IMG/VR virus record: IMGVR_UViG_3300035438_001058
Coordinates: 1 to 64,000 of that record
Reading direction: 5' to 3' (one strand)
DNA from: a virus
Length of the DNA: 64,000 bases
Of this stretch, positions 5,952 to 51,545 are shown in pieces; position 1 is the stretch's first letter, and each line of letters begins with the position of its first letter. The notes beneath the pieces are model-generated. The model was not told where the DNA came from, ran no database searches, and saw only the letters and a program-made list of their open reading frames with translations. Position numbers and translations under genes: made by a program.

Positions 5952-8900
5952 TGTGCCCAAATAAAAATTCACAAGAATGAAAAGATCTGGTTAGCAGATT
6001 TGGAGAAAAAGTAGCTTACATAAAATACTTTGCTTCAGACGAGATACAAACAGGAGATGAGCTTTCTAATATAAAAGAAAAGATTCGAGAAGCTGTATTA
6101 GGAAATGAAGAGTATTACGCTAAAAAATATGGGACATACCTAAAAGGATATTCAGCTACAAGTAATACTTTAGATGAAATGGTCGAAGCTTTTGCCCTCA
6201 GATTTACAGACTTGTCTCCAGTAATTAAAGGAGATGTAGTAGAAACTAATAAGGGAAATTTCTTATTGTTTCCAGAAGCAGATGCTGATTATGTTAGAAT
6301 GACCAATGTTCCTTCAGCAATGGACACCATGCTGCATGGTTTACAAGCAAAGTATGGCATACCGTTTACAGTTATAAATGATCCCAAACAAAAGTTTGCT
6401 GGCAAATACATAAATCAAGGGGATAAAAAGATGGTAGTGATTAACACTGCTTATGCTGATGAGAACACTCCTTTACACGAATATTATCACCCATTTGTCC
6501 GGTCCCTACTAGTTAGAAATAGACCTACTTTTGATATGCTTTTAAAGAAAGCAAGGTTAGATGGAGATGTTAGGAATGATTTAGAAGAAGTTGTAGTAGA
6601 CTTTTTAACTAAAAGTGCTAAGCAAAAAATAAATCTTAGTTTATTAGATGTTTTCTTTGATTTTATTAAGAAAATGTTAGGTATTAAACCTACCTTGACT
6701 ATTGATAATGCTACCACTTTAAGTGAAGTTATATCTTTAATAAATAAAGGAGAAGGTTTTAAAGAAGAAAGTACTTTAACCAAAGCTTATCAAAGAGCTG
6801 AAGATATGGCTAAAGACTTTAAAAACATGGTAAAAGACCGCAAAAAAGATGTAATAGTAGATTATATAGAAGCTCTTAAGAAGAACAGTAAAAATTATAA
6901 AACTTCTGACAGTAGTAATTTTTACCAAGATGATTCTAATAATGATGTAGCTAAACGTCTGTCTCCTTTTATAGGAGACGAAGACTTTGGGCAGTTCTCA
7001 CTTAAAGGCAAGAATAAAAAATACACTGTACCAGAGTTTAGGTTGAGAGAGTTATTAAGAAAGGCGGGTTTTAATTTGCAAGACAAGCCTTTAAGTACGG
7101 TAACAGAGACGTTTAAACTTGGAGATCAAACCTACACTGTGGCCCAATTATTAGCTGCGGAAGAATTGAAGTATAGTAAATTCCAGAAGTACGGTAAGAT
7201 GGTTCACTCTTTCTTACAGTTTAAACTTGAGACAGATCCAGACGCTAGAGTTAAAGCTAGAGCTGATGCTGTTAAGTATGCTAATGAATATCAAGCTGCT
7301 GGAGGTGAACCTTTTACTACTTTAGAAAATCACCCTAAACTTTCGGAAATTGATAAAAATTTTGAAGCGATATGTAAACGTGCGGGCATAACAATTACAG
7401 TGGATCTTGAGAAAGGAATTACCGCTAAAATGTTAGATAAAGTTCTTCCGGAGGTTATATTAGTATCTGATCTACTTACTGATGAAAATGGTGTGCCAAT
7501 TGGTACCACAGCTGATGGTATTATACAACACTCTAACGGAGAAATTTCCCTAATAGACTGGAAGACTGGTAATATAGTTAGTGATATGGGAACAGCTTAT
7601 TTAATGGCTTACGGAGAGAAGTTTGATTTAGCAGACTCGAAACTAAATAGAGGTTATTTGGAGTTAGCTTTCCGTGCAATGATATTAAAGGAGCAGCATC
7701 CAGACATGGTTTTTAGAAACATCAGAATAGTTAAACTTAATTATGATGGCTCTTCTCAGAATATGAATCTGGATCTAACACCTTTTTTAAATACTATAGG
7801 AGAATATTATAAGGTAAATAAACCTGAGATTTACGCCAAACTTCAATCGAAGAACCTATTGGAGGCAGCTTCATACGAAGGTGTTGGAGAAGATTTAGTA
7901 GGAGTGTATAAGCAAATTCCACAAGGATTGGAATATGCGGAACAAGTTGATTGGTTAAAAACTCAATTAGCAATATTACACGCCAATAAAACTAAAGAAG
8001 AGATTCAAAGAGACCCTGCTGTTCTTAAAAGATCTATTCAATTAACTAACGCAATATTAGAGTTAGAGAAAATTCCTGGAGCTAACTTTAACGAAAACAC
8101 TCCAGACCTTCCTTTTATAGGCAATCTAAAGAACTTTTCTGACATTGCTAATCCAAAGGTACAGACCTTACATAAAGTTTTATTAACAGCTAAAGAAACT
8201 ATACATAAAATAACTGGAGACAGGAATACTGAGCATGATAAATTAATGCTTGCTGTTGAAAAGGATGCTAAAGTAAAACGTAAAAACACAACCTTACAAG
8301 TGTCGGCTTCAGCTCTAGTACTTTACGGCGTAGTGGCGTATTCTTTCTTACCTTTTGCTGGAGGTTTATTACTGTACAAAATAGGTAAAAGAGCTTTTAC
8401 ATCTACAACTAAAGACTTTTACAGCTTTATGTGGAGACAGTCTACTGATGTGGGCCGTCCTGGTTACTATATGAATACTGGAGATACCTACATAGACGGG
8501 CAAGGTAAAGTTCAGAAGATGACTCAAGCTCAAACAGACTACAGGAATTTTATACAGCGTACTATGCGCGAAGATTTTAATAAAATTGCTAATAAAGTCG
8601 TCGGCCAAAAGTTGAGCGGGCAACCCATGTATATGTGGGAAAGACAAGGCTGGCCTTCTGAATTACCAGATGACTTTATGCCTCGCATTCCAAAACCAAC
8701 TGACGAACTTAGAGAAGAAGAAGACTTTACTTCTAATTATTTAGGTTTAAAAACAACTTTATCTAACAGCGCTCGTAAATACATGACATCATTTGTCGAG
8801 GATACTTTTGGTGATCCTGAAGGGACTATTCCTCTTAAGTATTTTAAGCACACAGGCTCTAGTGTAGTTGAAAATGGTATGCACTCTATGCACGCTGAAG

Positions 8901-19991: not shown

Positions 19992-21139
19992 TACATTTTC
20001 ATTGTTAGCTGTTCTGCATCTGCGTCCATTAACTCTTCGACAATAGTCTCAAATTTTTCGTAATTTAATGGTCCCCAAACAGCTAGAACCCGTCCACTTT
20101 TTTTTCTTTTTTTAATGTGAAAAAGGTTAGGATCTCTAACTCCTTGGGTAAAGTTGTAAATGATATCCCCCACTACTATGGCTGCAAATGCTGGTATATT
20201 AGCACACTCGCAGTAAGCACATACTATTTGACCTTCTTTATTAATGTGCCTTGAAATAGTACTTGATGGTAGAATCATCAAATCTACCGCAAATTCCTCC
20301 AAACATAAATCACAGACATCATCTCTGTACCTACTTACCTTGCCCTGCATAGTTTTATCAGCGGTAAACAATCTGTTGTGCTCAGTAGTATGTAAGAATT
20401 TGTAAGCACATGGACCACATTGATACTCAATGTTTTGTTTTCCGTGAAAATCTGTTCTCATTTTAAACTCATCATTTATCATATAATAAGGCTCTCCACA
20501 AGTAGGGCATACGGCTGTTTGAAAAGTATTGGTGTAGAAATTAGATATACTTTTTTCTGGTAACCTCCCACTTATTTCTTTTATACACGAAGCACAAGTT
20601 AAAATAGTACCTCCATCCACAGTGTAAGGATCGTTTCCACACGGTACCCACATGAAATTAGAAGTTGTTTCTTCTACAACCCCTTGACAGAAGTAACAAT
20701 GCTTAACAGTATATAAAGATATATCTAATTCGTATTCGTACTTTGATTCTAAGTGCGTGAGACTATAATAGCAGTCTGCGGCAAACCTTCCGTCAAATAG
20801 TAGGGAATCAATTTTAGAATTTTTAGCGACGTCTTTGTTGGATAAGGCCTTGTAAAATATGTCCTCTGAATGTCTAGAGTTCAGATTTTTCATAGCTGTA
20901 ATTGCAGAGGAACAATTACTGCAGGTGTGCACACCTTCCAATACATCTATAAATTCGCGTTTTTCGACTTCTGATATTATGGTAAACTCTTCGTTGTCAT
21001 GCAGGGAATCACATAGCACACAAAGCGCGTGGTTATCCCCATAAGGGGCTCTGTACTTTTCAAACCCAACAGGTAAGTAAGCACCTCTAGATCTAATATA
21101 CCGATCTAACTTTGTATTTGATTTATGGTTTCGACTCAT
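19991..21139 (-). CDS. Multi-CxxC (zinc-ribbon-rich) protein
   Basis: Eight CxxC pairs: CVLC, CSNC, CYFC, CASC, CPTC, CGPC, CDLC, CAYC. Confidence 0.7.
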   Translation of the reverse strand: MSRNHKSNTKLDRYIRSRGAYLPVGFEKYRAPYGDNHALCVLCDSLHDNEEFTIISEVEKREFIDVLEGVHTCSNCSSAITAMKNLNSRHSEDIFYKALSNKDVAKNSKIDSLLFDGRFAADCYYSLTHLESKYEYELDISLYTVKHCYFCQGVVEETTSNFMWVPCGNDPYTVDGGTILTCASCIKEISGRLPEKSISNFYTNTFQTAVCPTCGEPYYMINDEFKMRTDFHGKQNIEYQCGPCAYKFLHTTEHNRLFTADKTMQGKVSRYRDDVCDLCLEEFAVDLMILPSSTISRHINKEGQIVCAYCECANIPAFAAIVVGDIIYNFTQGVRDPNLFHIKKRKKSGRVLAVWGPLNYEKFETIVEELMDADAEQLTMKM

Positions 21140-22308
21140 TTTGTAACACTTTTTAATCCAGCCCCAACTGTTTTAGCGTCTACCCAATTCTTTTCGACAG
21201 AGTTCTTGGTGTAAAGATTAATAAATATGGGTTTCATTTTCCCCTCTTTAAATCTTAGAATTCTGCCAGTTTGTTGCGTATTAGTAAGTTTAGTAGATAC
21301 TCCTGATAAGCATATTGCTCCGTCGACATCTGGCAAGTTAACACCTTCGTTTAAAGCGTCAACTGCTATAAGCAAGTTGAAATCACCGTTCTTAAACGCC
21401 TGTAAAACAATTTCTCTACTCTTTAACTTCATCTTAGAGTGGTAAACTCTACCCCCTACTACAGATCTTAAAGCTTCAGCAAATTTAATACTTTTAGTAA
21501 ACAGCAACCACTTTCTATTTGGCTCAAACTTTTCTATTATAGCTTTGGCGACACTAATCTTGGTAAGATTATTGTAAACCACTAATTTTCTTAGTTGCAT
21601 GGCTCCCCAGTATTGTTTGCAGAGCGTCTTTAGTTCCCTATCGTCAGAATACTGTTCAGCCTTAGCCAGATCAAACACGTTACGATATCTAGAAGATAAA
21701 TTAGGATCTTCACTTCGCAACCTGTCCAGCTTTATTAGCGACGTATTAAACACGTTGTCAAATGCCTTGTATTTACCTGCCATTGATTTGTCCATCCCCA
21801 CTTCTAAGTTGTAGATATTGAATTTAGGTAATATACCTTTATCGACAACATCTAATAAACTCTTGGCGTAAACAACTGGCGCTACTATACCTAAAAACTC
21901 TACGTACTCTTCTTCGTCTGGTATTGTTGCTGTTAAGCACAACATAGACGTAGCTTTAATACTTTGAAATACTTTTCTGTATTCAGGAGAAAGAGCTCTA
22001 TGAACTTCATCTATGATCACGAAATCGTATTCAGCGACATATCTGTAAGCAGATTGAATGCAAAGATAATCAACATTATTGTTATCTCCTAATTCTGCGG
22101 CAAATAATTCCCTAAATTGGTGTATAATGGGGATTCTTGAGGTAATGACTAGTGTCTTAGGAGGGACTCTAAAAGACTTAAAAGCCATTACCGCAAGTCT
22201 GGATTTTCCTACCCCGGTAGGTAGTACAACCGTTCCCCATTTACCAGCCTTATCTCAGGCTGTCAACGCTTCATTTTGAAGTGCTGTTACATTTTCTCTT
22301 AGTTTCAT
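21106..22308 (-). CDS. Superfamily 2 (DExH, SSL2/UvsW-like) helicase; TGA at 22255 and probably at 21136 read as Trp
   Basis: ATG 22308 gives LQNEALTA*DKAGKWGTVVLPTGVGKS, then IIDEVH, LTAT, LNEGVNLP and QQTGRILR. Readthrough of the last TGA adds WVETINQIQS before TAG. Confidence 0.9.
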
Positions 22309-22309
22309 C

Positions 22310-23092
22310 TTAGGTGCATGAGGCACAGTGGCCTCTTTCGTTAAAATATTCGTTTGTGCTGTCCAAGGCTTTTAAGCAGCTGGTACATTTGCCTTCACTT
22401 AAGTTGGCCATACAATTAGAGCAAAATGTGGCGTACTTAGTACTAGGAGTAAATTTTGCGTTACATCCTAAGCACGTGGACAATCCCTTAGCTTCTTTAG
22501 TGCAAGATTTGCATAGGGTTCTACCTACTGTGGTAGCTTTTCTGCATTTTGGGCAGATTTTAATGTCTTTACTATCTCTGGTGGCAGAAGTGTGGATCTG
22601 AATTTCTTTATAGCAATCTTTACATTGCCCCCTAGAGTTTAAGTGCGAAACATTTTTACAACTAGAACATTGTTCTGTCTTGTTGGTTTTTGGCATAAAG
22701 TTTCCGCCATAAAAACACTCTGGGCACGCACTAGTGTGCGAGGCATAAACATCACATTCATTCTTACACTTCGAGCATATAAGGGTTGCCTCGCTAGCGC
22801 AAGCCCCACATAGGGTTTCTCGCACAAGGCGGGAATTGCTGGGTATTAACTCGTTATCTTTTTCAAAACAACGTTGACACGCTCCTGCTATATTAACCCA
22901 TTTCTGCTCACCACACTCGTGGCAAACATCTTGGTGAGTTTCGACCCATTCTGCGTGCGTAGGGGCAGTTAGAACGCTAGAAGCAGGGTAACCTTTACAC
23001 TTTCTACAAGTGTTCTTACAATTACTGCATACAGCGTTCTCTAAATAGTGAAAGCAAGATGGGTCTAAGCACTGCCTGCTTTCACTCTCTAG
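22310..23092 (-). CDS. Cys-rich zinc-ribbon extension (260 codons) reached by -1 frameshift from the upstream membrane protein
   Basis: The frame is open from 23101 to 22310 with CxxC motifs throughout, but has no ATG/GTG/TTG before 22825. A slippery A_AAA_AAC sits at 23098-23092. Confidence 0.7.
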   Translation of the reverse strand, partial: LESESRQCLDPSCFHYLENAVCSNCKNTCRKCKGYPASSVLTAPTHAEWVETHQDVCHECGEQKWVNIAGACQRCFEKDNELIPSNSRLVRETLCGACASEATLICSKCKNECDVYASHTSACPECFYGGNFMPKTNKTEQCSSCKNVSHLNSRGQCKDCYKEIQIHTSATRDSKDIKICPKCRKATTVGRTLCKSCTKEAKGLSTCLGCNAKFTPSTKYATFCSNCMANLSEGKCTSCLKALDSTNEYFNERGHCASCT

Positions 23093-23098
23093 TTTTTT
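23047..23098 (-). promoter_or_regulatory. Programmed -1 ribosomal frameshift signal (slippery heptamer plus hairpin)
   Basis: Minus strand: TCA AAA AAC TAG AG, then AGTGAAAGCAGG-(16 nt)-CTTGCTTTCACT, a 12-bp stem starting 5 nt after the heptamer. Confidence 0.75.
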
Positions 23099-24207
23099 GA
23101 TTTAGAGGGTAATGTGATGGCATCTTTGGTCCACCCTTGAAGAGTCTCCCTAATTTGCACCTGTAGCTGGGGTTTAGTGATCCCCTTGTGTGTAGCAGGT
23201 TTACCAGACTCTAAGGTCTTGATACCCATGTTAATCTCCACTATGCCAGCAAAAGCTTTTGTCTTTGCTGCATCATCCATTTTGATGTAGTAAGGAAGAA
23301 TTTTATCCATCCAGACTTGTGGTTTGTCTATCCCTAGAAATTCTAAGGCAGTTGTTATCTGGTCTGTGGCCTTCTTGTTCACCTTTTTCGGATCATTGTC
23401 CTTTTTCTCATCGTCTTTCTTGTCCTCGTCCTTCTTATCTTCTTTCTTATCTTCTTTTTTCTCTTCTTTCTTCTCAGCTGGAACGTCAAACATATCTGTG
23501 TTCAATGCGTGCTGAATTCCCTCTTTTGTTAAGGACAATTTAAGGGCAAGAACGACCTCATAAATTGTCAGAAGCAAGTGAAATGTTGTTATAATGACGC
23601 TACTCATCATAGCGCTATGAAGATTAGCAAAAGGAGAGAAAGTAGGTGGATACCTATTCTCTGCTATTACAGCCGTCAAGAAGGAAGGATGTAAAAATCC
23701 CATCTTCACCTTCATCATTACCCAGAAGCATTCTAATTGACCTGTGTTATGCACAGCGTTGGCCATAGCTAACATATTTACTATTGGAGCGCCGACAGCA
23801 AAGATGAAGGATATTAGAATAATTACTAGGATAGTAGAGCCTAAACCCATTCGCACCCCTATTGGTCTTGGTATAACAAATACGGAAACAAACTCGCCAA
23901 TAGCTTTTGCTAAGCCAAAAGCACCGACAGTACTGATAGCCGCTGCAATTAGGTGAACTGACATTCGCACCGTTACATTTGTCTTTTCGTCTTGCACTGA
24001 ACCTAGTAGTGCTGCTTCTGCTATCAACGCAGATAGTTGTAAACCTATTAGATAGGTAAAGTTGTACTTGATAATTGCTCTAGCTAAAAGAGCTGCAGGT
24101 TCTAATCCCTTTAATTTGGGATCTTTTTGTGCTTGTTTGTACAGGTAATAGGTCAAAAGACCTACGCAAACGAAGAAGGCGACAAATACTATCGTGCTCT
24201 CTATCAT
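23089..24207 (-). CDS. Multi-pass membrane protein with a K/E/D-rich linker
   Basis: About five hydrophobic segments followed by EKKEEKKEDKKEDKKDEDKKDD. Confidence 0.75.
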   Translation of the reverse strand: MIESTIVFVAFFVCVGLLTYYLYKQAQKDPKLKGLEPAALLARAIIKYNFTYLIGLQLSALIAEAALLGSVQDEKTNVTVRMSVHLIAAAISTVGAFGLAKAIGEFVSVFVIPRPIGVRMGLGSTILVIILISFIFAVGAPIVNMLAMANAVHNTGQLECFWVMMKVKMGFLHPSFLTAVIAENRYPPTFSPFANLHSAMMSSVIITTFHLLLTIYEVVLALKLSLTKEGIQHALNTDMFDVPAEKKEEKKEDKKEDKKDEDKKDDEKKDNDPKKVNKKATDQITTALEFLGIDKPQVWMDKILPYYIKMDDAAKTKAFAGIVEINMGIKTLESGKPATHKGITKPQLQVQIRETLQGWTKDAITLPSKSKN

Positions 24208-26099
24208 TATTTATTCCATATTTTAGTTATTACTGCTTTAGCTGGGATATCTAAATGAGTAGTGTATTCTCTAGAAGCATCTAGGCAACACTTCTCTAAT
24301 ATCTTTGCGACAGTGTGTGAGAATTCGTCGGGGCATTCGAGTATTATTTCATCATGCACGAACAGTACGATTTTAAAAGGTATTTTTTTAGCAAATTTTC
24401 TAAGGAGAACTCCAGCCCTCTTACCTATATCGGCAGCGGTTCCTTGTACTGGAATATTCTGTGCCCATCTCTGTATTTTTGAATCCCAGTAACTATAGGC
24501 GTCTCTAATAGCTGGGTGTGGATCAGTGTATGTTAATCTGCACTTCTCCATGTACTTCTTGCACTCTAAATAATCATCAAAGAATGGAACAAATGACTTT
24601 CTACCGCTAACGGGGTTACAAACTACATATCCAAAATTCTTAGCCTCTAATCCTTGGTTGGAAAAGTATGCCTCAAGTTTTGGGAAGCTATCGTAATAAC
24701 CTCTAATAAGAGATTTTGCTCTTGTTATAGGAATATCAAATTGTTCCGAAAGTTTTTTAGCTCCTCCGCCGTAAGCTATCAAGAACCCTATGGACTTGGC
24801 TATACGACGTTCTTCGCTGTCTTTGGTCAAGTTCGGATCATTAAATGCGATCTTAGCAATCTCTAGGTGAAAGTCCGTACCGCTACCGCAAGCTTTGATC
24901 ATGTTTGGGTCTCCAGACTTATCCGCTATTATCCTTGCTTCTTGGTTTGAAAAGTCAGCCACTACAAACGAGTGGCCTTCTTCTGCCATGAAAGCAGATC
25001 TATAGACGTCACCTCTTGAAATATTCTGTAAATTAGGATTAGTGGAAGATATCCTACCTGTACGCATTACCTGCATGAAGGAAGAATGTACCCTTCCAGA
25101 ATAAGGGTTGATGTGCCTTAAAAATTTGTCCCCATAAGAGACTGCCTTTTTCTTGAGCATCTTGTAATCCAAATAAGTCTTGAGTATGCTAAACTTAGCT
25201 TCCTGTTTGAGAAGCACTAGTCTCCCTACACTCTCCTTTATTTCCCCAGTCTTTTTGTCTAGAGTAAGAACATCTACCCCTATTCCTTTCAGGGCGGTTA
25301 CAGCTTGTTTAGGGCTGTCCCAATTTATATCAAATTGGGCAAGTAATTGATCATGCAAACTCTTGGCTTGCTTAGCGACTTCTTGGGCATTACTAAGCCA
25401 CCTATTCCCTTCCAGGAATATTCCGTTTAGCTCCATATCTCCCAAAACCTTAATAAACTCAAACTCGAGTTTTAAGGTACGCTTTAAGTCCAACTCTCTC
25501 GCCTTCTCGACTAATTTCTTTTTTAGTAGAGCCGTGGCTTCCACGTCCATCGCTCCATAATATATTTGTTCTAAGGTAAACGGTGCATCCCCTATAGTGG
25601 AAAAAGAAGTCCGTACCTTTTTAGTAACTGTAGGCGCGAATAGATTGCCTTGGCCGCTGTAATAGGCTCTTACATACCTAGCAACGCATTGCTCGAGTGT
25701 GAAGTGGCCTTTAGGCGCATCTTTACCGCATTCAATAATCTGAGCGGCAATCATAGTATCCCAAAGATTCTCTAATCTTATCCCATAATTACTGGCTATA
25801 ACTTGGTAGTCATACTTGAGATTATGTCCGAGTATGGGCCTATTCGAATCTTGTATGCTTCTAAGTAGGCCTTTAGGGCAATGTTCTCTAGTGTCGATAA
25901 CAACTTGTGTGCCGCCATTCCCAAGTTGGAGCATGATAACCTGACGATCAAACAAATTAGTAAAATCACCAGTAGTCTCCGTATCGAGGCAAATTTCATC
26001 TCAGTCTTTTATTAGGTCCTGAATCTGGTTAAAAGTTATTTGGGAAATATCCCCCTGTTGTATGAGCCATACCCCTGTCGTAGATTGCTGTGTAACCAC
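24207..26099 (-). CDS. polA: Family A DNA polymerase with 3'-5' exonuclease (TGA 26001-26003 read as Trp; GTG 26099 start is tentative)
   Basis: KD*DEICLDTETTG (ExoI), GHNLKYD, TGRISSTNPNLQNI, ADFSNQEARI (motif A), RRIAKSIGFLIAYG (motif B), FVHDEI (motif C). Confidence 0.92.
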
Positions 26100-48477: not shown

Positions 48478-48757
48478 GGGGGTGCCAGGTATTGATTGCA
48501 CTCATAGGTTTGGTATTACTAGCAAGCAGTCTAAAGACTATAAATTTAAATAATCGACAATAATACTAATGACTTTGGTATCGGACTTCCGTCCTTTTCC
48601 ACAGAAGCAGTTGCTCCTTCTGTTACTCAAGAGCAGCCAGTTTACCAGTACGCATAAGTTTACCACACTAATAGACTATAATATAGGTGTACAGAAGCTT
48701 GTAATTCTAGAATATTAAACGAGTCGTAAGACAGCGGTTCGAATCCGCTCACCTCCA
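48478..48757 (+). ncRNA. ssrA: tmRNA
   Basis: 5' GGGGGTG pairs with 3' CACCTCC-A, including a G3:U Ala identity pair. T arm AGCGG-TTCGAAT-CCGCT. Tag ORF 48556-48657 follows TAAATAATC and ends in YA-TAA. Confidence 0.9.
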
Positions 48758-48772
48758 CTAAAATTAATTATT

Positions 48773-49042: not shown

Positions 49043-49099
49043 ATCGCTAACAGTCGTTAGGTCTCGCCCTCCATGTCGTAAGATGTGAGGGGGCAATTC

Positions 49100-49171
49100 G
49101 GGGATATGGGGTAATCGGTAACCGGGAAGTCTTCAAAACTTTAGTTGTCTGTTCGAGTCAGACTGTCCTCG
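49100..49171 (+). tRNA. Opal (UGA) suppressor tRNA, anticodon UCA, probably tRNA-Trp
   Basis: Acceptor GGGGATA/TGTCCTC with discriminator G; anticodon arm GAAGT-CTTCAAA-ACTTT (TCA at 49133-49135); short variable loop; T arm GTCTG-TTCGAGT-CAGAC. Confidence 0.9.
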
Positions 49172-49188
49172 CCCACAAAATTTTTATT

Positions 49189-49698: not shown

Positions 49699-49944
49699 AT
49701 GACTATAAAGGTTAATATTTCTTTCGAACTTTGGCCATATCAACAGTCTTACTCAGTAGAAATACCAGAAGATAAGTTTAAGGAAATGGATAAGTATGTG
49801 GATTCTATAACATCTAATTTAAAGATGTCATTATTATCCCATGTACGTGTCCATCACCCTAATTTATGGTATAAATATTCTCCTTTAGAAGATCAAATAC
49901 TGGCAACTTTAAAAATAGAAAATCACACACACAAAATTAAATAA
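49699..49944 (+). CDS. Hypothetical protein
   Basis: 81-aa ORF; TAATG overlap with groEL. Confidence 0.6.
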   Translation: MTIKVNISFELWPYQQSYSVEIPEDKFKEMDKYVDSITSNLKMSLLSHVRVHHPNLWYKYSPLEDQILATLKIENHTHKIK

Positions 49945-51545
49945 TGACAAAGAATATTCATTTAGAAAAAGAAACACGAGATAAAATGCTGGAAGGTGTT
50001 TTAACTTTGGCACACGCAGTAGGATCTACACTAGGACCAATGGGGTCAAACGTAGTAATTGAGACTCCTTACGGAGCTACCACAGTTACTAAGGATGGAG
50101 TCACTGTAGCTAAACATATTGATTTAGATGATGCTGTGCAAAATTTAGGAGCGCAGATATTAAAACAAGCTGCTTCAAGAACAGCTACTCTTGCTGGCGA
50201 TGGTACAACAACTGCTACTGTAATAGCTGCGTCTTTAGTACAGTCTGCGCATAAATTAATTACTGCGGGTGTGAAGCCTATTGATATTAAAAGAAGGTTA
50301 GAAATTCTCTTATTAGAAGCTCTGAATAAGATTCGGATTCAAGCTAAGAGTGTTGACCTTAATAGGATTAAAGAGATCGCCACTATCTCAGCAAATAATG
50401 ATGAGGAAATGGGGGCTTTAATTCAAGACGCTTACAACCATGTTGGCCCCAATGGAATGATCACTTTAGAGGAATCTAAGACAGGTCTAACTCATTTGGT
50501 TATGGAAGAAGGAGTTTCTATTGACAAAGGATTTGTATCTCCTTATTTTATCACTGATTCTGCAAAAGGAGAATGTATTCTAGAGAATCCATTTATCTTT
50601 ATTACTGATTCTAAAGTTAGATATACTCAAGATATAGTACCTATATTGGAAATTGCTGCTTCTAAATCAAGGCCCCTTCTTATTATAGGAGACGAAGTAG
50701 ATGCTCAAGCTCTTCAGTTGCTCGTACTAAATAAGATGCGCGGGACAATACAAGTATGTGCTATAAATGCCCCTTCTTTTGGGGATAACAGAACAGCGAT
50801 ATTAGAAGATATTGCTGCCCTAACATCTACTACTATTATAACCGCTAAAGCTGGCACTAGGTTAGAGGATACTCCAGAAAGAGCATTAGGAAATGCTCAA
50901 AAAGTTATCATATCAAAGTCGAAGACTATATTAGTAGGACCTAAGAATAACTTAGAGGCTATTGAGTCTAGAGCTGAAGAAATTCGTAACTCTATGGAAT
51001 TGGAGCAAGATCTTTATTTAAAGAATAGACTTCAAAAAAGATTGGCTGATCTTACTGCTAAAGTAGCTGTGCTTCATGTTGGGGGAGCTACTGAAACTGA
51101 ATTAAAAGAACGCAAAGATCGTGTAGATGATGCTCTAAGGGCTACTGCTTGTGCCATACAAAAAGGTTACCTTATTGGCGGCGGTGTAGCTCTAGCTCGT
51201 GTGTCTTCTTTCATAGAGATAAAAGATGCTTTAATAGATCCTATTTTTATAAACGCACTAACATCCCCTCTAAAATTAATAGCTTCAAATGCAGGGCAAA
51301 CAGGAGAAGTAGTTTTAGCTAAAGTTTTATCTTCAGAAGATCTTGATATTGGTTTTAACGCTCGCACGCTCAAGTATTCTAATTTATTAGAGGATGGTGT
51401 AATAGATCCCGCGTTAGTAGTTGAGCAAGCACTCTCAAACGCAGTATCAGCGGCTTCTATGATATTACTTTCTGCTACGGCAATCACAAATAAAGATAGA
51501 AAACCTCCTTTTAATCCAGGTAATATGGAAGATTATGCTGCATAA
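49944..51545 (+). CDS. groEL: Chaperonin GroEL
   Basis: STLGPMG, VTKDGVTVAK, AGDGTTTATV and GGATETELKERKDRVDDAL motifs. Confidence 0.97.
   Translation: MTKNIHLEKETRDKMLEGVLTLAHAVGSTLGPMGSNVVIETPYGATTVTKDGVTVAKHIDLDDAVQNLGAQILKQAASRTATLAGDGTTTATVIAASLVQSAHKLITAGVKPIDIKRRLEILLLEALNKIRIQAKSVDLNRIKEIATISANNDEEMGALIQDAYNHVGPNGMITLEESKTGLTHLVMEEGVSIDKGFVSPYFITDSAKGECILENPFIFITDSKVRYTQDIVPILEIAASKSRPLLIIGDEVDAQALQLLVLNKMRGTIQVCAINAPSFGDNRTAILEDIAALTSTTIITAKAGTRLEDTPERALGNAQKVIISKSKTILVGPKNNLEAIESRAEEIRNSMELEQDLYLKNRLQKRLADLTAKVAVLHVGGATETELKERKDRVDDALRATACAIQKGYLIGGGVALARVSSFIEIKDALIDPIFINALTSPLKLIASNAGQTGEVVLAKVLSSEDLDIGFNARTLKYSNLLEDGVIDPALVVEQALSNAVSAASMILLSATAITNKDRKPPFNPGNMEDYAA

Follow-up and report, generated by a model that had tools for sequence, protein, structure and literature searches.

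A probable programmed −1 frameshift joining a membrane protein to a cysteine-rich tail in the replication operon of a freshwater phage family

Introduction

How a long cysteine-rich reading frame can be translated when it has no start codon of its own is the question raised by a minus-strand locus in a 64,000-nucleotide stretch of viral DNA (IMG/VR record IMGVR_UViG_3300035438_001058, positions 1 to 64,000; hereafter, the window), which belongs to an 85-kb virus record. The frame in question, referred to below as the tail, follows a gene for a membrane protein in the −1 frame, and both are located within a tightly packed minus-strand operon that comprises a family A DNA polymerase (PolA), the membrane gene, the Cys-rich frame, a superfamily 2 (SF2) helicase, and a second Cys-rich protein. 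The likely answer, judged from sequence comparison, is programmed −1 ribosomal frameshifting, by which a membrane protein of 372 amino acids (aa) and an extended form of 632 aa would be made from the same gene. A first-pass annotation of the window had proposed two such products (372 and about 632 aa), and this proposal is supported by comparative tests in five genomes; its placement of the site between PolA and the SF2 helicase, outside the tail-chaperone locus, is borne out by the same neighbors in all five.

Architecture of the Junction

On re-reading of the minus strand, all coordinates of the first-pass annotation proved correct, and the heptamer before the stop, the hairpin after a further 5 nt, and the −1 frame closed by TAA were all found as it had claimed. 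The elements concerned are as follows.

23089..24207, minus strand: membrane-protein open reading frame (ORF), 372 aa, taken as the 0 frame, ending TCA AAA AAC TAG
23104-23102, minus strand: TAA closing the −1 frame, located one codon upstream of the heptamer
23098-23092, minus strand: slippery heptamer A_AAA_AAC in X_XXY_YYZ phase, codons TCA AAA AAC
23091-23089, minus strand: 0-frame stop codon TAG, abutting the 3' end of the heptamer
23086-23047, minus strand: hairpin, with 5' arm 23086-23075, loop 23074-23059, and 3' arm 23058-23047
22310..23098, minus strand: −1-frame ORF (tail), 262 codons from the heptamer plus TAA at 22312-22310
22825-22823, minus strand: GTG, the first canonical start in the tail frame (ATG/GTG/TTG scan), 91 codons after the heptamer

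Because TAA at 23104-23102 closes the −1 frame, the tail cannot be initiated further upstream in that frame, and the distance to the GTG agrees with the earlier count of about 90 codons without a start. These first 91 codons contain no stop, share about 75% protein identity with the closest homologue (P0004), and carry six Cys shared without exception by the seven aligned sequences, down to 31% identity. As the window tail lacks its own start codon, frameshifting would be its only route of expression. The entire tail contains 33 Cys, which form 15 CxxC pairs (more than a dozen had been claimed) and one Cx4C; by inspection of the CxxC spacing, with the pairs taken as Cys4 knuckles, it appears to be a multi-zinc-ribbon array of about eight Cys4 zinc ribbons.

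The hairpin consists of a 5' arm, AGTGAAAGCAGG, and a 3' arm, CTTGCTTTCACT, that form 12 pairs, including one G-U, around a 16-nt loop; it is separated from the heptamer by a 5-nt spacer (UAGAG), and its 3' arm codes for S-C-F-H-Y of the tail. The 69-nt fold at this position has a free energy (dG) of −20.8 kcal/mol and a z-score of −2.8, with 2 of 200 shuffles folding equally well, and of the window's 60-nt pieces, only 4.5% are as stable as the one that follows the heptamer. No Rfam family was found at the junction, and no upstream Shine–Dalgarno (SD)-like element of the kind present in dnaX was seen before the heptamer. An intrinsic terminator was rejected as an identity for the hairpin, there being no minus-strand terminator-like site at the junction and no U tract. 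Readthrough of the TAG in the 0 frame was likewise discarded, as two more TAGs lie within 20 codons beyond it and the 0 frame is not the conserved frame.

An assembly indel, which had been raised as another origin of the arrangement, fails as an explanation because four independent contigs bridge the signal without a gap. The locus is present in runs of 13 lake or freshwater metagenome studies, and contigs of four runs from four different studies cross positions 23047-23104 with 0 gaps and 0–1 substitutions each (X11, 23012-23272; X3, 23002-23322; X5, 22845-23166; X7, 22992-23142). The sole substitution is at 23110, outside the signal; this evidence is made up of assembled contigs, to which rare variants are invisible.

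Conservation of the Slippery Site in Four Relatives

The window was compared at the DNA level with four related genomes, namely L002, L003, and L004 from IMG/VR and L005 from an ENA assembly, these being phage contigs of about 90–100 kb whose membrane proteins are 37–59% identical to that of the window. The gene order PolA, membrane protein, Cys-rich frame, helicase, and second Cys-rich protein is the same in all five genomes. For each, the end of the membrane gene, the distance from the heptamer to the first Cys codon, and the first canonical start after the heptamer are given below.

Window: TCA AAA AAC TAG; 20 nt to the first Cys codon; first start GTG, at 91 codons
L004: ATA AAA AAC TAG; 26 nt to the first Cys codon; first start GTG, at 14 codons
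L005: CTA AAA AAC TAG; 23 nt to the first Cys codon; first start TTG, at 139 codons
L002: GCA AAA AAC GGA TAG; 17 nt to the first Cys codon; first start ATG, at 17 codons
L003: TCA AAA AAG GCG TAG; 23 nt to the first Cys codon; first start TTG, at 15 codons

An in-phase heptamer is found 0–1 codons before the TAG stop in every genome (A_AAA_AAC in four and A_AAA_AAG in L003), and in every genome a Cys-rich ORF occupies the −1 frame, with no stop at the junction, extending for 240–283 codons after the heptamer in the relatives versus 262 in the window. The residue before the Lys varies (S/I/L/A/S), and the third position of its codon is A in all five, compared with a genome-wide frequency of third-position A of 0.32. 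Moreover, the Lys of the heptamer is encoded by AAA in all five (67% usage) and the Asn, where present, by AAC (41% usage), and the adjacent Thr-Leu-Pro codons vary at every synonymous site. The heptamer codons thus seem to be conserved beyond coding need, at a rough chance order of 1e-4 if the lineages are taken as independent, which overstates the case.

The linker between the heptamer and the first Cys codon is 17, 20, 23, 23, or 26 nt long, and all of these lengths are 2 mod 3; hence, insertions and deletions in this poorly conserved linker have kept the frame relation to the upstream gene, which a tail gene that is initiated independently would not need. The first zinc site, C-L-x3-C-(P/F)-H ... 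C-x2-C, is positioned upstream of the first canonical start.

Two further observations concern the stop codons of these genes. The membrane gene ends in TAG in all five genomes, though TAG makes up about one third of the stops in these phages. In L004 (7911-7958) and L005 (4887-4895), a TGA occurs in the tail frame at the position that corresponds to the tail end of the other genomes; if this TGA is read as Trp, the tail is longer by 15 residues in L004 or by one residue in L005 and runs into the helicase gene.

Conservation of the Downstream Hairpin

A stem 5–8 nt after the heptamer is found in four of the five genomes (the window, L004, L005, and L002), and in L004, L005, and L002 the 60 nt downstream of the heptamer fold with a dG of −16 to −19 kcal/mol (z −2.0 to −2.5). 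In every genome with the hairpin, the 3' arm coincides with the tail codons for Cys-(Pro/Phe)-His. The pairings below were read directly from the arms, the covariation count from a MAFFT alignment being only partly usable.

Window: 5' arm GUGAAAGCA; 3' arm UGCUUUCAC
L005: 5' arm GGGGGCAG; 3' arm CUGCCCCC
L004: 5' arm GGGACA; 3' arm UGUCCC
L002: 5' arm GGGGGCA; 3' arm UGUCCCC (one G-U)

The arms differ between genomes yet remain complementary; for example, AAA:UUU in the window stands opposite GGG:CCC in the relatives, and GCA:UGC opposite ACA:UGU in L004. The change from Pro to Phe in the window (CCC to UUU) is matched by a change from GGG to AAA in the seemingly untranslated linker, and the change from UGC to UGU in L004 is matched by one from GCA to ACA. 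The 5' arm has thus shifted its position, yet the structure persists.

The exception is L003, the genome with A_AAA_AAG, in which no stem was found at the 5–8 nt spacing (z −0.15). It has instead a 21-bp stem at 7108-7165, 21 nt past the heptamer, which encloses the sole nearby TTG start and whose 121-nt fold reaches −42.7 kcal/mol (z −3.3). A slippery heptamer at the place given in the first-pass annotation, A_AAA_AAC or A_AAA_AAG, is conserved throughout the five genomes, and a hairpin in the 5–8 nt position in all but L003. A trade-off in which a weak heptamer is combined with a hairpin, and a strong heptamer does without one, is plausible and is drawn from one genome, L003.

The Two Proteins and Their Homologues

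The membrane protein is polytopic, with about five to six hydrophobic helices in residues 1-225 (hydropathy and AF2 secondary structure), a disordered K/D/E-rich linker in residues 229-276, and a helical C-terminal domain of four helices in residues 273-360 (AF2 secondary structure). AlphaFold2 models are poor for both parts (pLDDT 64 for the membrane protein and 62 for the tail). No match to the membrane protein was obtained in Pfam, PHROGs, NCBIfam, PDB folds (Foldseek), or the ESM Atlas, and a scan of genome contigs with the membrane-protein alignment gave no match. Besides the window's own P0007, it has 13 homologues of 349–372 aa, all of which stand alone; none of the 13 is fused to anything, within a searched length range that would include a 632-aa fusion. 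Their C-terminus, (T)LP-x-x-K-N/K, is conserved.

The tail of the window matches the Pfam family DZR (PF12773) weakly, at 17 bits against a gathering cut-off of 27.3, and DZR is matched by four of seven tail-family members, with a best E of 5.5e-5. A PDB sequence search returned no relative of the tail, and neither PHROGs nor NCBIfam contained a match. In a profile search of 1.84 billion representatives, 101 homologues of the tail were collected, 34 of them at E <1e-10. One protein of 619 aa (P0115), taken up as a candidate in-frame fusion, turned out to be an unrelated low-complexity protein. Scans of viral contigs, metagenome contigs, and phage records with the tail alignment gave no match, and scans with the single proteins P0015, P0016, P0122, and P0132 and with a wider tail alignment added no further contigs.

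Many of the called tail proteins start inside the profile. For instance, the public gene call for the window, P0005 (171 aa), begins at the GTG at 22825 and omits the six invariant Cys, and truncated calls are likewise found in relatives as P0023 (181 aa), P0024 (185 aa, the call of L003), and P0025 (163 aa). These truncated calls fit a true N-terminus of the tail that often has no start codon, with truncation at contig ends possible for some. What results looks like a systematic annotation error: in several genomes, gene callers shorten the tail to 163–185 aa or place its start within the first zinc site.

Probable Programmed Frameshifting and Its Alternatives

In the proposed mechanism, ribosomes that reach TCA AAA AAC would hold tRNA-Lys in the P site and tRNA-Asn in the A site while the hairpin, which begins 5 nt further on, opposes unwinding, and some of them would slip back by one base onto AAA AAA and continue with CUA GAG AGU onward. 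Ribosomes that do not slip would end at the adjacent UAG to yield the 372-aa membrane protein, and the slipped product of 632 aa would be the membrane protein followed by the 260-residue tail, ...SKN-LESESRQCLDPSC..., with NLESESR at the junction. Slippage itself and its efficiency are deduced here from the nucleotide sequence; since A_AAA_AAG is the stronger of the two heptamers in bacteria and A_AAA_AAC the weaker, a low to moderate efficiency is probable. The tail would presumably be cytoplasmic, because its cysteines need to be reduced and the linker is charged.

Several observations weigh against frameshifting. In-phase X_XXY_YYZ heptamers are common in the long frames of this A-rich window, which hold 186 of them, and a lone heptamer at the end of the membrane gene is no proof beyond chance; moreover, conservation of the C-terminal K-N/K-K of the membrane protein already accounts for part of the heptamer. 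The comparison covers five related genomes at the DNA level, and the probabilities quoted from it are rough. RNAalifold on the MAFFT alignment returned a consensus of six pairs with three compensatory pairs only, and the 5' arms of the hairpin are not positionally homologous in the coding alignment, because of which column-wise covariation is low and understated. The 21-bp stem of L003 is too far from its heptamer for a classical stimulator. Among the listed runs with the locus, which come from the 13 metagenome studies, none is an RNA run. In addition, an in-frame fusion of membrane protein and tail, considered in the first-pass annotation as a simpler arrangement, was found in none of the 101 tail homologues and 13 membrane-protein homologues, and some distant homologues have an ATG just before the first Cys (P0026 and P0122, MCKVSTC; P0039 and P0043, MVGxPICL). 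Tails that start in this way may be free proteins in some lineages, and initiation independent of the membrane gene may accordingly occur in some branches of the family; free tails in some lineages suggest that the membrane protein and the tail work together whether fused or not.

What sets the site apart is its combination of features. Among the 186 heptamers of the window, that of the membrane gene is followed by the longest −1 open frame (262 codons; the runner-up has 216), is the only one located within three codons of a stop, and is the only one at which a long −1 frame is paired with a downstream fold at or below −16 kcal/mol.

The alternative that survives best, and that is nonetheless unlikely, is that two separate proteins are made, with the tail translated from a non-canonical start (e.g., AUC at 23101-23099) or by termination-reinitiation and the heptamer being a by-product of the conserved Lys-Asn C-terminus. 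The operon lends itself to such an arrangement, since its genes are tightly packed and coupled: the PolA stop overlaps the ATG of the membrane gene (TAATG), and the helicase ATG (22308-22306) begins 1 nt after the tail TAA (TAAGATG). The missing in-frame fusions and the calls of P0026, P0039, and P0043, in which the ATG immediately precedes the first Cys, point the same way, as do the canonical starts that occur 14–17 codons past the heptamer in three relatives, but each of these would remove one or both Cys of the first zinc site (the GTG of L004 falls between the two Cys of the Cx4C, the ATG of L002 after both Cys, and the TTG of L003 after a CxxC). L005 offers only an ACG between the heptamer and the first Cys. 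Nor is there a common near-cognate start, as the −1-frame codon before AAA AAA reads ATC, CAT, GCT, AGC, and ATC in the five genomes; thus, the non-canonical start near 23100 that had been envisaged is not a conserved one. Separate initiation would also leave the 2-mod-3 linkers, the invariant third-position A, and the spaced hairpin unexplained.

Transcriptional slippage is a good deal less probable. According to this explanation, RNA polymerase adds one A within the A6 run, and a subset of the mRNA then encodes the fusion in frame, with KLESESR or LESESR at the junction. The A6 run is shared by all five genomes, and the resulting protein would be nearly identical to the frameshift product (…SKKLESE… vs …SKNLESE…). 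However, six A is a short run, and no relative has a longer one; Baranov, in work of 2005 cited in PMC4066793, reportedly placed productive bacterial transcriptional slippage at runs of about nine A or T. The phase of the heptamer and the hairpin 5–8 nt downstream would, moreover, be left without a role. The contigs show A6 only, but they are DNA and so are no test of the RNA.

Least probable is that the tail is made only as the truncated 171-aa product from the GTG at 22825, exactly as gene callers predict (P0005, with a similarly short product in L005), or is a decaying gene without a start, because the 91 codons that would then be untranslated are free of stops, about 75% identical to P0004, and lined with Cys invariant in seven homologues, which implies strong purifying selection on them.

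With programmed −1 frameshifting as the preferred explanation, a role for the fusion may be considered. Anchoring of replication at the membrane, which the first-pass annotation had offered as a tether for the replication machinery, is pure speculation that the operon alone suggests. In its fullest form, to which little credence is given at present, the frameshift would set the stoichiometry between the free membrane protein and the form with about eight zinc ribbons, the ribbons would recruit the replisome of co-translated PolA and helicase, or the phage DNA, to the inner membrane, and lineages would balance the strength of the heptamer against the hairpin, with A_AAA_AAC plus a hairpin in some and A_AAA_AAG without one in others. 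If this were true, TGA-recoded freshwater phages of about 100 kb would possess, as a family, a membrane anchor for replication whose dose is set by frameshifting.

Genome Context and Genetic Code

The other features of the operon and a tRNA gene that bears on its genetic code are listed below.

24207..26099, minus strand: family A DNA polymerase that includes a 3'-5' exonuclease domain (Pfam E 5e-69 and 2e-20); under code 4 the open frame begins at a GTG, which is listed as the 5' end and is a putative start
21106..22308, minus strand: SF2 helicase (ResIII, Helicase_C), with two in-frame TGA codons
19991-21139, minus strand: second Cys-rich protein, 382 aa, which follows the helicase in all five genomes
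49099-49175, plus strand: tRNA with anticodon UCA

No similarity between the second Cys-rich protein and the frameshift tail could be detected, and it matched no family. The plus strand carries the portal, major head, and GroEL-like genes. The GroEL-like chaperonin (49944-51545, plus strand; phrog_5725, E 2e-138) is just upstream of the packaging and head genes, and a tmRNA-like gene with a 33-residue tag, predicted by ARAGORN at 48478-48758 (plus strand), adjoins the tRNA(UCA).

Judging from its genes, the phage reads TGA as Trp. Several genes of the window are whole only under code 4. PolA has one in-frame TGA, before the exo I motif, and N-terminal in-frame TGA codons must be read through in both PolA (26001-26003, minus strand) and the helicase (22237-22239, minus strand). 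In the helicase motif EALxA-W, the Trp is encoded by TGA in four genomes and by TGG in L003, and at ANK-W this is reversed. A further TGA, which appears as the helicase stop (21138-21136, minus strand), overlaps the ATG of the next gene (ATGA). Past this codon, a stretch of 10 residues (WVETINQIQS) has conserved counterparts in relatives (WITNINELQN, WVTNLNELQS); for this reason, the TGA at 21138-21136 is probably also Trp, with the helicase overlapping the next gene by about 30 nt (21106-21139). In the window, the membrane gene and the tail contain no TGA, so that the question of frameshifting is independent of the code.

Comparison With Known Systems

For A_AAA_AAC, frameshifting in bacteria has been proven in IS1 (PMC4066793). 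The closest parallels in arrangement are IS1 InsA/InsAB' and OrfA/OrfAB of the IS3 family (IS911, IS150). There, as proposed for the window, a −1 shift close to where the upstream ORF ends, often accompanied by a downstream stem-loop, fuses this ORF to a following one that lacks its own start; IS1 uses A_AAA_AAC, as in the window, and the IS3 family uses A_AAA_AAG (PMC4066793). In contrast to these insertion sequences, the genes described here have no relation to transposases (no match in Pfam, PHROGs, or NCBIfam) and pair a membrane protein with a zinc-ribbon array in a phage replication operon. The lambda proteins gpG/gpGT (G_GGA_AAG) and their analogues in tailed phages resemble the arrangement proposed for the window in that a conserved −1 shift in a double-stranded DNA phage gives a short and a C-terminally extended product, presumably in a fixed ratio (PMC5009743). 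Unlike that of gpG/gpGT, however, the present site is flanked by PolA and a helicase instead of the major tail and tape measure genes, the proteins bear no relation to gpG/gpGT and neither part has a PHROG match, the extension is large (260 aa) and Cys-rich, and the heptamer differs.

In dnaX of E. coli, which encodes tau and gamma, A_AAA_AAG acts together with a hairpin at about 6 nt and an upstream SD-like element, and the shift leads to early termination and a shorter product. The likeness lies in the context of a replication gene, the hairpin stimulator, and the heptamer class, which is that of L003; unlike in dnaX, the shift here would give a much longer fusion, and there is no homology. 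Phages with recoded stop codons, in which TGA is read as Trp and a suppressor tRNA is encoded by the phage, have been surveyed (10.1101/2021.08.26.457843). The phage of the window is similar to them in that TGA is read as Trp and a tRNA(UCA) is present, and the frameshift itself is separate from this recoding.

A search of the open literature found no description of the gene pair or of its placement in a replication operon. The fused parts belong to no known family, and their fusion, as a 'Rosetta stone' hint of joint action at the membrane, provides a starting point for two conserved orphan genes beside the polymerase. The family also offers a natural comparison for the tuning of frameshift efficiency, with a weak heptamer plus hairpin set against a strong heptamer without one. 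Conserved frameshifts in phages are known mainly from tail-chaperone and capsid genes, and a conserved frameshift in a replication operon would widen the known use of recoding in phages. While the mechanism is a textbook one, the gene pair and its locus constitute a new conserved example.

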